In this document: one piece after another, positions 31,657 through 60,086 of the stretch
Position numbering within the stretch: the first letter of the stretch is position 1
Layout: every line of letters starts with the position of its first letter
Source of the DNA: Candidatus Giovannonibacteria bacterium
GTDB lineage: Bacteria; Patescibacteriota; Minisyncoccia; UBA11713; 2-01-FULL-45-33
DNA length: 64,000 nt
NCBI GenBank assembly: GCA_016432405.1
Contig: CP066687.1
Location: forward strand, 515,065-579,064
Direction: 5' to 3'
The notes under the pieces: generated by a model
What the model was told of the DNA's origin: nothing
The model's database searches: none
Seen by the model: only the letters and a program-made list of their open reading frames with translations
Program-made: the position numbers and the translations under genes

Positions 31657-31717
31657 TTATAAATCCCCTAAATCGTAGCAGATTTTGGGGTTTTATTCAA
31701 GCGTGGTTTTGGGTTTT
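31657..31717 (-). promoter_or_regulatory. Conserved promoter module, copy A
   Basis: Minus strand reads TTGAAT (31695-31700), 17 nt, TACGAT (31672-31677), then TTAGGGGATTTATAA. About 88 percent identical over about 60 nt to 60026-60086. Confidence 0.55.
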
Positions 31718-31803
31718 GTTTATCAATAGTTATCCACAGGACTTGCTTTTGAAAACTGCACATGCTAGCATGGCTATACAGTATCGAGAAAAGGCGTCGA
31801 CCG

Positions 31804-32616
31804 TTAGGACGATGGCCTTTTTTCATTTGTAACGCTGGGCATAATTGTGTCTATAAATTGCGCATCTTTATCAACAAAAATATTAAAATTTCGATTACGA
31901 AACCCATTGATAAAATTAGTAGTCGTGCCGAGATTATTTTTAAAATGCTCTAAAAACCGGCGCTTATATTTATCGCCGTTAGCAATTTCTTTAGTAGCCA
32001 ATCTAAGATCATAATTTATGGCGCCAACTATTAAATCAGCTGTTTGTAGGAGATCGTTGGATTTAGAATCAAATCTACACACTCCTGCGATAGCAAGTCT
32101 TTCAAATTTTTCATTTAATTTTCTTTTTACATTAACCTCAAACCTAATATCTTTCGGGGTAGTAACGTGGTCGGCGATAACAATGAGAATCTCGTTCTCT
32201 GATACCGCAGACTCAAGCACTCTAAGAGAGATATCTTCATATGCCTGCCAAGGATTAGCCGCAAAAGCCCTACTAAAATATTCACCTTTTTTGTACAAAG
32301 AATAAGAACTAAAACGCAGGCTTTTCGCATCGAACAATGCATCTAACGCAAATTTGGCAAATTCAAAATTTCTATTAGATAATTTATTAAACTTCATTTC
32401 GTCAAAAAAATTTCTTTTCCTGCGTTCGTAAAGCAATTTGCTTTGTAAATAATATGGTTGTGAACATTTAATAAATCCTAAAGTAAAAAATGTGTCTCTT
32501 GGGTTATTTAAACTGCCACTCTCGTCTAGAAAACAAAACTTGCTCCAAATGCTTTTATAATCACCTAAGGTTAGGTCTGATCCTTTTTTATCTGCTTGAA
32601 AAAGTTTCCCGAACAT
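31804..32616 (-). CDS. DUF3800-like protein (N-terminal FLDESG motif)
   Basis: 270 aa. CFLDESGSLNN near the N-terminus is typical of DUF3800. AT-rich. 2 nt downstream of secF. Confidence 0.65.
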   Translation of the reverse strand: MFGKLFQADKKGSDLTLGDYKSIWSKFCFLDESGSLNNPRDTFFTLGFIKCSQPYYLQSKLLYERRKRNFFDEMKFNKLSNRNFEFAKFALDALFDAKSLRFSSYSLYKKGEYFSRAFAANPWQAYEDISLRVLESAVSENEILIVIADHVTTPKDIRFEVNVKRKLNEKFERLAIAGVCRFDSKSNDLLQTADLIVGAINYDLRLATKEIANGDKYKRRFLEHFKNNLGTTTNFINGFRNRNFNIFVDKDAQFIDTIMPSVTNEKRPSS

Positions 32617-32618
32617 AC

Positions 32619-33500
32619 TTAAAAACTAACGTGTTTTAGTGCCCACTTATTCCATGTCACCAATAGAAAACTGGCGATGAAGATGGAAGAATATGTGCCG
32701 AAGAAAACGCCGACTAAAATGGCGAGGGCGAAGAATTTTGTGCTTGCGCCTCCAAGAAAATAAAGCGCCAGCATCACAATCATTACCGTAAGCGAGGTAT
32801 TAATTGAGCGGCCGATGGTTTGGCGCAAGCTTGTCTCAACGATATTTTCAAATTCTTCCCTGGCTCCGGATTTTTTTAAATTTTCTCTAATGCGGTCAAA
32901 GACCACAATCGTATCGTGCACGGAAAATCCTAAAATAGTAAGAAGCGCAGTCACAAAAAGCGTGTCCGCGGTGACGCCGTAAAAGCGCCCCAAAACCGCG
33001 AAAAGGCCGGTGGGGATGGAAACGTCGTGCACCAAAGCAACGAGAGCCGCCAAGCCATATTTCCAAGAAGATATCGGCCGCGACACTTCCCGAAAAGCCC
33101 AGGCGATGTAGAGAGCAATCATAAGCATCACCAAAATAATCGCGTAAAGCGAATTTCGTTTTAACTCCTGCCCGATTGTCGGCCCAATAGAAGTAAATTG
33201 TTTTTCTTCCAGTTCGCCTAGTTTTCGGAGTTCCGTCAGTATCGCCTGGTGCTCCTGCTCGCTGATTGCCGGCATGCGCAAAATTAACCCCCTCTCGCCC
33301 ACAGGCTGAATTATAACTTCCGGTAAATTTATAGCCGGCCTTGATCCGCCGGCTGGCAGATTATATTCCACCTCCATTAAAGTCCCGCCGGTGAAATCTA
33401 TTCCCAGTTTCAGCCCCCAGACCCAAACCGCCAAAAAACTCGCCAGCACCAATATCCCGGAAAACGCGTAGCTTATTTTTCTCGCGTCAATAATGCGCAT
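32619..33500 (-). CDS. secF: Protein-export membrane protein SecF
   Basis: 293 aa. GIDFTGGT motif, 6 TM helices, SecD/F family. Confidence 0.85.
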   Translation of the reverse strand: MRIIDARKISYAFSGILVLASFLAVWVWGLKLGIDFTGGTLMEVEYNLPAGGSRPAINLPEVIIQPVGERGLILRMPAISEQEHQAILTELRKLGELEEKQFTSIGPTIGQELKRNSLYAIILVMLMIALYIAWAFREVSRPISSWKYGLAALVALVHDVSIPTGLFAVLGRFYGVTADTLFVTALLTILGFSVHDTIVVFDRIRENLKKSGAREEFENIVETSLRQTIGRSINTSLTVMIVMLALYFLGGASTKFFALAILVGVFFGTYSSIFIASFLLVTWNKWALKHVSF

Positions 33501-33502
33501 GT

Positions 33503-58540: not shown

Positions 58541-59061
58541 AAACCAGTGGGAAAATGCCCTAACCTGATAGTGTTGGTAATATTACCAGCCGGGACATTA
58601 AATTTTTGTCCTTGTAATTCTACAATACCACCATCGGAATAAATTGTGTACTCAAAAATCGCTATTTTATCACTAGATTCTTTTAGATTTTGTTGTGCAT
58701 TCTCAAAATCTTTTAGAAAATTTGATGTCCTATTATTTATTTGCATTTCTTTTAGATCTATAGTGGCTTTTTCTTGTTCCTCAATCACAAAATACTTCGC
58801 CGCCAAATCTGTGTCCCCCTTTTTCAGAGCGTCAATAAAAAGCGCCAGTGTTTCTTCCGGCGTTTTGCCGCCGTAGGTATCCTCTTCATAAAGTTTTTTC
58901 AGCGCCTCGTATTCGTTTTGCGCTTTCTTCGCGTTCCACCAATCGCGGAGCGCCCCTGAATTATCGTAAATCCCGGCGCCATAAACCGCCAAAAATCCCA
59001 GCGCCAAAATCCCCAGCATCCCCGCGAAAAATTTCCAAAAATGCTTGTTTAATGAACTCAT
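58519..59061 (-). CDS. Hypothetical membrane-anchored protein
   Basis: 180 aa, N-terminal TM, no family recognised. Confidence 0.55.
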   Translation of the reverse strand: MSSLNKHFWKFFAGMLGILALGFLAVYGAGIYDNSGALRDWWNAKKAQNEYEALKKLYEEDTYGGKTPEETLALFIDALKKGDTDLAAKYFVIEEQEKATIDLKEMQINNRTSNFLKDFENAQQNLKESSDKIAIFEYTIYSDGGIVELQGQKFNVPAGNITNTIRLGHFPTGLWKILEL

Positions 59062-59183
59062 AACTCAAAAATAACTCACAAAGCCTAGCCAGTCAACATT
59101 AGTTTTCATCTACTAATTTTAGCATAAAACCCTGCCCCGTTAATTTTCTCGCCTCTCCGCCGAACACCGCAATTTCACTTTTT

Positions 59184-59999
59184 TTATTTCTTTTTACTCT
59201 TTTTTAATCTTTTTTCTATTTTCCTTAATCTTGCTTCAAGTTTTTTAAAATTTTCGTTAATTAATATTCTAGAATCTCTTATTAAATCTGTTGCTTTAAT
59301 TTCTTTAATCATACTTTCTTTAGACAAATTAGCTATATTTTTCATTGTAGTTTCAAGATTATTAATAATTTTTTCTCCAAGTATAGTAACTTTTTTAGAA
59401 TCATTATGCAGTTCATTAAATTTCCGATACTTATGAAGGGCTTTATGAGTTATGTCGTTGCGCATAGAATTAAAGTTTTCTAAATCGCTCACCAACATGC
59501 TGTCATTTAAAAAAACGCTTAAAAAATGTATAAGTTTGCCCAGTGTCTCTTTTTGTAATTTTTTACTGGAAAGTTTTATCCAAATCTTTGTTTCAAATAA
59601 ATGGCTGTTGGAAATACAATCGAGATTTATGATGGACTGTATAAATATCAATAAAGATATTACGTTATATGAGATTAAATTTTCTTGTAATACCAGTCTT
59701 GCATAATTCGATTTCTCCTCTCTGAGATACTTTAGAAAATCTTCACGGAATCTCTCCCTCTCATCTAGATCACTAACAATCTTTTTAACTAAATGTTCTC
59801 TTTCTTTTTGCCAAAATAGGCCGTTTTCTATTTTGTTGCCATCCTCATCTTTGATAAGGCCGCCTAGTTTATCATAATGAGCCAAAATCTTTTCTGGCGT
59901 AGCATTTTCTCCAGCATCCTTTTTAGCCCTATCGTATTTATCGCTATTATTATTGAGCGTGTATTCTCGTCCCCGAACTTTGATTTTTATTTCTTGCAT
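59184..59999 (-). CDS. Abi_2-family (AbiD/AbiF-like) abortive-infection protein with HEPN R-x4-H motif
   Basis: From the ATG at 59999 with SD AGGAG (the track start 60023 lacks an SD). AT-rich. LRNDITH fits the R-x4-6-H HEPN motif conserved in AbiD/AbiF. Driven by promoter module copy B. Confidence 0.6.
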   Translation of the reverse strand: MQEIKIKVRGREYTLNNNSDKYDRAKKDAGENATPEKILAHYDKLGGLIKDEDGNKIENGLFWQKEREHLVKKIVSDLDERERFREDFLKYLREEKSNYARLVLQENLISYNVISLLIFIQSIINLDCISNSHLFETKIWIKLSSKKLQKETLGKLIHFLSVFLNDSMLVSDLENFNSMRNDITHKALHKYRKFNELHNDSKKVTILGEKIINNLETTMKNIANLSKESMIKEIKATDLIRDSRILINENFKKLEARLRKIEKRLKKSKKK

Positions 60000-60025
60000 A
60001 ATGTCTCCTAGTTTTTTGAACAAAC

Positions 60026-60086
60026 TTATTAATCCCCTAAATCTTAGCGGATTTTGGGTTTTTATTCAAGCAGTTTTCGGTTTTTT
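60026..60086 (-). promoter_or_regulatory. Conserved promoter module, copy B
   Basis: Minus strand reads TTGAAT (60064-60069), 17 nt, TAAGAT (60041-60046), then TTAGGGGATTAATAA. Paralogous to 31657-31717. Confidence 0.55.

Follow-up and report, generated by a model that had tools for sequence, protein, structure and literature searches.

We analysed a stretch of 64,000 nucleotides (nt) from a Candidatus Giovannonibacteria bacterium (GenBank assembly GCA_016432405.1, contig CP066687.1, positions 515,065 to 579,064 of the forward strand), hereafter the window, in which a short conserved element of about 46 nt occurs twice. The two copies, A and B, lie on the same strand (minus) with 28.4 kb between them. 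Both come after co-directional genes; copy A stands before a gene for a 111-residue protein and copy B before a gene for a 271-residue protein, 0.8 kb from a gene in which LexA is fused to a DNA methyltransferase of the N6_N4 type. The G+C content is 0.38-0.39 around copy A (31-33 kb) and 0.31-0.39 around copy B (59-63 kb), with about 0.5 elsewhere, in agreement with the AT-rich surroundings described in a first-pass annotation of this DNA. Judging from its sequence, we give somewhat better than an even chance to the element being a sigma-70-type promoter with an embedded palindromic operator, reused before different accessory or defence-like genes.

The cores of the two copies are identical at 42 of 46 positions (91%). 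Over the 61-nt stretches 31657-31717 and 60026-60086, 49 of 61 positions agree without gaps (80.3%) and 53 of 61 columns (87%) agree with one 2-nt gap, which bears out the identity of about 88% over some 60 nt given in the first-pass annotation. The local alignment score of the two stretches is 36.5, while 1000 shuffles gave 8.6 +/- 1.1 and at most 14. A 41-nt degenerate search pattern for the element matches the window exactly twice, at copies A and B, and finds nothing in 100 dinucleotide shuffles. Beyond both edges the identity collapses abruptly and the flanking DNA is unrelated, so the element is not a piece of a larger duplication and brings no shared coding sequence with it. Such a larger duplicated segment had been named in the first-pass annotation as one finding that would speak against a shared module. 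The sole overlap with coding sequence is at copy B, which contains the last two codons and the stop codon of an open reading frame (ORF) of 72 residues (60066-60284).

A scan of metagenome contigs identified three further genuine contexts in related Parcubacteria, the loci L014, L015 and L017, which together with the window copies give five contexts in four related genomes. The loci L019 and L025-L034 are equivalent to L015, and L035 is equivalent to L017. The core CTTGAATAA-nnn-CCCAAAATC-YGCTAN-GATTTAGGGGATTWA hardly varies among the five contexts, and all 36 invariant columns of the 58 in the five-copy alignment fall inside a core of about 44 nt. The flanks are unrelated within 1-2 nt of the element ends, with the exception of the lexA side, which L015 and L017 have in common. 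The window strain itself recurs in the Logan assemblies SRR121134xx. Among 185,579 species-representative genomes the inverted-repeat pattern matched only twice (Haloferula and Bacillus, loci L001 and L002), both judged to be chance, and a scan of viral contigs with this pattern returned no match; the element is therefore not widespread. A BLAST search of phage records gave only 20-nt chance matches. Two other metagenome matches, L016 and L018, were also judged to be chance, the latter lying inside a 359-residue ORF and lacking the -35/-10 part. An nhmmer search with the five-copy profile over 387 kb of window and loci brought up no additional or diverged copy, and neither did the loci fetched later. 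Rfam families matching at the gathering score are limited to RNase P and four tRNAs in the window and to RNase P in L014 and L015, with no family at the element. The element appears to be low-copy and restricted to a small group of Giovannonibacteria-like Parcubacteria.

Read on the minus strand, both window copies have the layout GCTTGAAT-17 nt-TA(C/A)GAT-TTAGGGGATT(T/A)ATAA. This is the arrangement of TTGAAT, 17 nt and TA(C/A)GAT followed by TTAGGGGATT that had been noticed before. The spacer between the putative -35 and -10 hexamers is exactly 17 nt in all five copies. CTTGAAT is invariant in the five copies, although its TTG falls outside the palindrome described below, and the putative -10 hexamer differs only at position 3 (A, C or G) with T1, A2 and T6 fixed. 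This pattern of variation, with a fixed TTG outside the symmetry, a constant spacer and a single variable -10 position, is what a promoter would predict. Conservation is not confined to the hexamers, as had been pointed out earlier, and spans the whole spacer and the initiation region, including spacer positions that are not read by RNA polymerase. The ATG follows the end of the element by 22 nt at copy A and by 26 nt at copy B, within the 20-30 nt previously estimated, and a co-oriented gene start lies 0-60 nt downstream in four of the five contexts. Good ribosome-binding sites are present in the copy B and L017 contexts. In L015, L017 and L035 the element occupies a gap of 113-167 nt between the downstream gene and a divergent gene for a LexA-D12 (Dam-like) methyltransferase fusion. 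An element between divergent genes cannot be a terminator, and this gap must hold the promoter of the downstream gene.

The first-pass annotation overlooked an extended, imperfect palindrome in the element, ATAAA.CCC(C).AAATC - YGCTAN - GATTT.GGGG.TTTAT. Its inner arms, CCCCAAAATC and GATTTAGGGG, agree at 9 of 10 positions. In copy A alone the symmetry reaches further out to GCTT/AAGC, giving 18 pairs, whereas the dyad of copy B is weaker, with ACCC in the left arm and TTAAT in the right arm. Over the five copies the 14-pair dyad is kept in 91% of cells, compared with at most 56% in a shifted register. The dyad begins at about -33, within the 3' half of the -35 hexamer, extends as far as +12 or so of the predicted start and is centred on the -10 hexamer. 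A dyad centred in this way fits the site of a dimeric regulator, and its extent would correspond to the classic placement of a repressor operator. No compensatory change is seen in the five copies, every variant breaking a pair. The symmetry is thus preserved at the level of sequence, as would be expected of a protein-binding site more than of an RNA helix.

The genes downstream of the element, which we call its cargo, differ in each context. They encode the 111-residue protein (copy A), the 271-residue protein (copy B), a 109-residue protein and an NYN-domain protein (L015) and an AAA_15 ATPase (L017/L035), and in L014 there is none. The cargo proteins are mutually unrelated, with a probability of 0.2% in an hhalign comparison of their profiles. 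Homologues of the 271-residue protein at 79, 64 and 55% identity (L039-L041) have no element upstream, so the element does not travel with this gene. With five contexts, unrelated cargo and immediately diverging flanks, the earlier statement that the module precedes unrelated genes holds, and the term promoter cassette reused for foreign genes is a fair one. The defence character of the cargo is more mixed. The 627-residue AAA_15 ATPase of L017 and L035, which is AriA/GajA/AbiLi-like, and the NYN protein of L015 match PADLOC defence models, whereas PADLOC gives no such match for the two window genes. These belong to uncharacterised families and are not supported as defence genes; for the 271-residue protein in particular there is no Pfam or PADLOC match, and neither database lends support to its earlier label of AbiD/F-like. 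Of the two suggestions made in the first-pass annotation, a regulator-binding site or a mobile promoter cassette that places foreign defence genes under common control, the 14-pair dyad and the reuse independent of the 271-residue cargo agree with the idea of a site and a cassette, while the defence part is mostly unsupported. The coordinates of the window features are collected in Table 1.

Table 1. Positions of the element copies and associated features in the window.
Feature	Position	Strand	Remarks
Copy A of the element	31657..31702	-	minus-strand letters GCTTGAATAAAACCCCAAAATCTGCTACGATTTAGGGGATTTATAA; nhmmer E=3.9e-16
Putative -35 of copy A, TTGAAT	31695..31700	-	invariant in all five contexts; predicted assignment
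Putative -10 of copy A, TACGAT	31672..31677	-	TGC just 5' (extended -10-like TGn); predicted assignment
Dyad of copy A, ATAAA.CCCC.AAATC-N6-GATTT.GGGG.TTTAT	31659..31696		inner arms 31681-31690 and 31665-31674
A-tract stretch 5' of the copy A -35	31703..31717	-	minus-strand letters CAAAACCCAAAACCACG; common to the window copies only
Gene for 111-residue protein, downstream of copy A	31299..31634	-	no Pfam match
Perfect DnaA-box 9-mer TTATCCACA	31730..31738	+	28 nt upstream of the copy A -35
Copy B of the element	60026..60071	-	minus-strand letters GCTTGAATAAAAACCCAAAATCCGCTAAGATTTAGGGGATTAATAA; nhmmer E=1.3e-15
Putative -35 of copy B, TTGAAT	60064..60069	-	includes the TGA stop codon (60066-60068) of the upstream 72-residue ORF
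Putative -10 of copy B, TAAGAT	60041..60046	-	predicted assignment
Dyad of copy B	60028..60065		inner arms 60050-60059 and 60034-60043
Matching A-tract stretch 5' of copy B	60072..60086	-	encodes the last residues of the 72-residue ORF
Gene for 271-residue protein, downstream of copy B	59184..59999	-	AGGAGA ribosome-binding site; product identical to NCBI HYW15_03420
LexA-methyltransferase fusion gene (LexA DNA-binding domain and S24 peptidase, N6_N4 DNA methyltransferase)	60869..62392	+	marks the copy B hot spot

We propose that the element would act as a compact promoter of the sigma-70 type, with TTGAAT as the -35 hexamer, a 17-nt spacer and TAnGAT as the -10 hexamer. An imperfect palindrome of 26-38 bp, overlaid on the spacer, the -10 hexamer and the start region, would be the operator of a dimeric repressor acting in trans. 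The element would head different, mostly horizontally acquired accessory or defence-like genes in a small Giovannonibacteria-like group, notably beside lexA-methyltransferase genes and at least at one other site in the same genome (copy A). With one element before several genes, the cargo genes would share a single transcriptional control. What the sequences show is the conservation, the dyad, the placement relative to gene starts and the independence of the cargo; transcription initiation, repression and binding by one common factor are our inferences.

Several observations weigh against this proposal. The hexamers match the sigma-70 consensus at only 8 of 12 positions (TTGAAT 4/6 and TA[ACG]GAT 4/6), and a consensus promoter scan with a cut-off of 9/12 listed neither copy. 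There is no obvious Shine-Dalgarno sequence before the 111-residue gene of copy A. The copy in L014 is an orphan without a downstream gene, where only a remnant of seven codons homologous to the start of the L015 ORF is left. A weak alternative promoter-like site (9/12) upstream of the element in L015 and L035 would transcribe through it; such sites are no more numerous than expected by chance. Since a variant in the dyad always means a lost pair, the symmetry could in part be a matter of inheritance and not of selection. In addition, all copies come from closely related genomes, so their high identity may partly reflect young age.

In the window (copy B) and in two other lineages, the element is found in a variable hot spot beside lexA-methyltransferase genes. 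L015 and the island around copy B are syntenic, both having, in this order, an ArsR-like gene (63154-63426 in the window), a small ORF, the lexA-methyltransferase gene, the element, the cargo, a 'MSSLNKHFW' protein, a 1200-residue surface protein and RNase P. At this position divergent from lexA, L021 has an AAA_15 ATPase with another promoter, L046 an SNase-like nuclease, L037 a 1249-residue protein and L042 a DUF7128 gene with a cold-shock-domain protein, none of them with the element. A direct comparison is offered by L035 (3326-3492) and L036 (1-230), which encode an identical LexA-methyltransferase protein; the element and the AAA_15 cargo are found only in L035, and the two sequences part exactly at the TGTGGATAA box. 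This difference points to a recent gain or loss of element and cargo at the hot spot. We looked for a shared site at the far end of the cargo region, and only the conserved promoter of the next core gene was common. At the hot spot beside lexA, it looks more likely that cargo has been swapped behind a resident promoter than that the element itself has moved.

The lexA genes sampled in this group have promoters of another design. All lexA promoters examined share a module of TGTGGATAA (which is a perfect DnaA box), a direct repeat with a period of 11 and the -10 hexamer, in this order. TTTCGG, TTCGGG, CTCGGG and TTTCTAT all occur as repeat units, varying with the DNA-binding domain of the LexA paralogue. 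It looks as if operator and LexA repressor have co-diversified. We also observed that the paralogues differ in their DNA-binding domains while their S24 parts are nearly identical. Repeats with this period are located at 2777-2840 and 11392-11442 in L015, 9962-10000 in L021, about 5930-6000 in L037, about 1950-2030 in L046 and 60800-60834 (minus strand) in the window, where the module faces a DUF2188 operon and is inverted relative to lexA.

The DnaA box near copy A was considered as a part of the element and rejected; neither copy B nor L014 has one nearby, and elsewhere its spacing and orientation differ from case to case. The box TTATCCACA, often extended to AGTTATCCACAG, is found in promoter regions more generally. 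The window has three (31730-31738, 38282-38290 and 60826-60834) compared with 0.22 expected, and others are at L009:3059, L015:2831 and 11434, L021:2742 and 9962, and L020:9918. The box lies 5' of every lexA or lexA-methyltransferase gene examined and also before ribonucleotide reductase genes in two genomes. These promoters could be a DnaA-regulated set or could carry the SOS box of the clade.

As a rival explanation, the palindrome might act in RNA, as a hairpin in a transcript from upstream that has an intercistronic role in termination, insulation or stabilisation, or that masks the AGGGGA Shine-Dalgarno-like sequence right before the ATG of L014 and L015. Folded as a single strand, copy A reaches a free energy of -19 to -20 kcal/mol (z-scores of -3.6 and -5.6), the window copies follow co-directional genes with the stop codon of the 72-residue ORF inside copy B, the ATG of L014 and L015 comes 3 nt past GGGGATTT, and the weak promoter-like site upstream in L015 and L035 might supply such a transcript. 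However, the fold of copy B is not stronger than that of shuffled DNA (z about -1), copies A, B and L017 have no ATG after GGGG, compensatory pairs are absent, the DUF3800 gene before copy A already has its own strong hairpin at about 31790-31825, and with a divergent upstream gene in L015, L017 and L035 there is nothing to terminate. We regard a role in RNA as unlikely. An intrinsic terminator we reject, on the divergent-gene context, on the U-poor tails AUUUAUAA and AUUAAUAA and on a terminator scan that lists neither copy on either strand. A similar verdict applies to a REP, REPIN or MITE repeat (repetitive extragenic palindrome, its hairpin-forming doublet and miniature inverted-repeat transposable element, respectively). 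Two copies in 64 kb, none extra in 387 kb and a uniform orientation argue against repeats of this type. Another possibility, which we think very unlikely, is a site of site-specific recombination or cassette exchange, since the 10-6-10 layout of the inner dyad would be that of a tyrosine-recombinase-type core (Xer/dif-like, as in pdif modules). Such cores have two arms of roughly 11 bp on either side of a 6-8-bp spacer, and come with a cognate recombinase and in pairs that bound the module. The arm-6 nt-arm architecture, the location in a variable hot spot, the presence/absence polymorphism of L035 and L036 and homology that stops exactly at the element edges would all agree with this, as would the way in which L015 and L017 share the lexA side and part right after GGGGATTTA. 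Yet no recombinase gene adjoins any of the five copies, serine recombinases are found only in loci without the element (L020 and L037), a second site at the far end of the cargo is missing, and L035 and L036 part at TGTGGATAA and not at the element. The central 6 nt also differ at two positions between copies, which would block strand exchange, and we know of no resemblance between the element and dif consensus sequences, which we count against this explanation.

It is also conceivable, if quite improbable, that the element has no dedicated function and is a young relic of intragenomic duplication or of recombination between related strains, too recent to have diverged. The carriers are all closely related; those with the lexA-Dam fusion are at least 86% identical in the fusion, and lineages at 77-81% lack the element. 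The absence of covariation in the dyad and the roughly 15 extra upstream nt shared by the window copies would also be expected of a relic. Neutral relics would however have ragged, decaying edges, whereas the flanks here are non-homologous within 1-2 nt in five contexts, the orientation to the gene start is consistent, the varying sites are those a promoter tolerates, and the orphan copy in L014 is still intact. A special case of the proposed promoter with operator is that the dyad is the operator of a LexA-family protein, either the neighbouring LexA-methyltransferase fusion or a paralogue, which would make the cargo SOS- or damage-inducible. In promoters, the palindromes bound by LexA dimers measure about 16 bp (PMC8565304). 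The inner AAATC-N6-GATTT of the dyad is 16 bp, the size of these palindromes, and the element is directly divergent from the lexA-methyltransferase gene in L015, L017 and L035 and 0.8 kb from one in the window. Against this stand the lexA promoters sampled, which have the module of TGTGGATAA and period-11 repeat and never the dyad as their own operator. The repeats co-vary with the LexA DNA-binding domains while the element stays the same whichever paralogues a genome has, neither copy A nor L014 adjoins lexA, and six other lexA lineages (L020, L021, L036, L037, L042 and L046) are without the element. We consider control by LexA to be a long shot. A further extension of the promoter-operator reading is that a resident repressed promoter beside the lexA-methyltransferase locus is a landing pad, which captures defence or toxin genes by recombination mediated by the flanks; this is a speculative idea to which we assign a low probability. 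It is similarly doubtful that captured genes would be kept silent until DNA damage or phage infection removes one repressor, with the promoter occasionally copied elsewhere, as for copy A. If true, the landing pad would be an integron-like expression platform without an integrase.

Some further features surround the window copies. The DUF3800 gene (31804-32616) had been described as belonging to the block headed by copy A. The small ORF is indeed downstream of the element, but DUF3800 is on the upstream side of copy A, with a hairpin of its own, and is therefore not driven by the element. This strong symmetric hairpin, AAAAGGCGTCGACCGTTAGGACGATGGCCTTTTTT (31790-31825), overlaps the end of the DUF3800 gene and looks like a bidirectional terminator between DUF3800 and the element. 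The A-tract stretch at 31703-31717 may be an UP-like element or what remains of the 3' end of an upstream gene.

The two window cargo proteins can be described in part. The 111-residue protein belongs to a real family of proteins of about 110 residues, with 146 representative clusters at 50% identity. Its AlphaFold model (pLDDT 87) shows a helix-strand-helix-hairpin-helix arrangement, and a Foldseek search of this model against the PDB found nothing below E = 0.4. In the 271-residue protein, the N-terminal 70 or so residues form a domain common to many proteins of about 150 residues at about 70% identity, and full-length homologues are also found in a metagenome-assembled genome of Nanoarchaeota. 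Downstream of the homologue in L039 comes a small winged-helix protein (DIP2311-like_C/HTH_11), and a protein of the same kind follows the AAA_15 ATPase in L021.

The LexA-methyltransferase fusions deserve attention in their own right. In-frame fusions of LexA (winged-helix DNA-binding domain and S24 peptidase) also occur at 1235-2776 (minus strand) and 9940-11391 (minus strand) of L015, and the methyltransferases are of type II, N6_N4 or D12. The LexA-D12 fusion of about 512 residues is 72-86% conserved in at least 119 other 90%-identity clusters (Wolfebacteria, Giovannonibacteria and others) among the matches listed, and in the six lineages with fetched loci it is always tail-to-tail with an ORF of 179-184 residues. 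We found no paper on natural LexA-methyltransferase fusions in the literature searched. The ORFs convergent with these genes (62409-63077 on the minus strand of the window, and 693-1232 and 9119-9943 on the plus strand of L015) have no Pfam or PADLOC match and may encode the cognate restriction endonucleases. In L021 a stand-alone LexA forms an operon with DpnI. The RNase P RNA of bacterial class A in the window (54392-54888, minus strand) adjoins the gene for the 1203-residue surface protein. In L015 a second module of LexA-methyltransferase restriction-modification (R-M) genes lies between RNase P RNA and surface protein, which makes this another variable spot.

To our knowledge, almost nothing is known about the promoters and regulators of uncultivated Candidate Phyla Radiation (CPR) bacteria, or Patescibacteria. 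The element offers a concrete cis-element of about 46 bp in a phylum with essentially no characterised regulation, a marker of a variable defence hot spot beside lexA-methyltransferase genes and a natural case in which newly acquired genes reuse a promoter. Should one repressor bind all copies, this would be one of the first accessory-gene regulons in the phylum. The LexA-methyltransferase fusions, the DnaA-box promoters of lexA and ribonucleotide reductase genes and the apparent co-diversification of operators and DNA-binding domains may outweigh the element in interest.

Several known systems resemble the element in part. REP, REPIN and MITE repeats are present in many copies per genome, typically at gene 3' ends and in variable orientation. 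The element is likewise a short imperfect intergenic palindrome that is repeated in the genome and common to relatives, but it faces gene starts rather than following gene ends, and no gene for a REP-associated tyrosine transposase (RAYT) or other transposase was seen nearby. With repressor-controlled promoters, such as those with LexA/SOS boxes, phage repressor operators or the C-boxes of R-M controllers, it shares an inverted repeat over the core promoter and the presence of the same site at several unlinked genes, which would form a small regulon. It differs from them in the length of its dyad (26-38 bp), in the conserved asymmetry of that dyad and in being unlike the clade's own lexA promoter module. 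The Pc/attI region of integrons is similar in having a resident promoter at a fixed site, interchangeable unrelated cargo and LexA-type regulation nearby. In contrast to integrons, the element has no integrase gene and no attC-like sites at the cargo ends, there are one or two genes per site, and homologous recombination between conserved flanks is the more likely route of cargo exchange.

A close parallel is found in the putative mobile promoters (PMPs) that Matus-Garcia, Nijveen and van Passel described in 2012, which are highly similar upstream sequences of 50-100 nt before non-homologous genes, with coding sequences on both the upstream and downstream side that are not alignable, within one genome and among relatives (PMC3488235). 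They were proposed to rewire newly acquired or silent genes, and were defined by alignments of at least 50 nt and at least 80% identity between upstream regions (PMC3488235). With 49 of 61 positions identical ungapped and 53 of 61 gapped around a core of 42 of 46, the element falls within this definition and is borderline on length. The non-aligning flanks are found here too, both in the unrelated DNA flanks and in the hhalign result for the cargo profiles. As with PMPs, a similar upstream sequence precedes non-homologous genes within a genome and in its relatives. The element is however at the short end (a 46-nt core, and 61 nt at 80-87% identity), lies nearer to the start codon than the -150 to -50 region of the survey, has an obvious dyad-symmetric putative operator, and is tied to a lexA-methyltransferase hot spot in a CPR lineage outside the 2012 survey. 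As a kind, the element is not unprecedented and fits the known idea of a putative mobile promoter, if at the lower limit of length.

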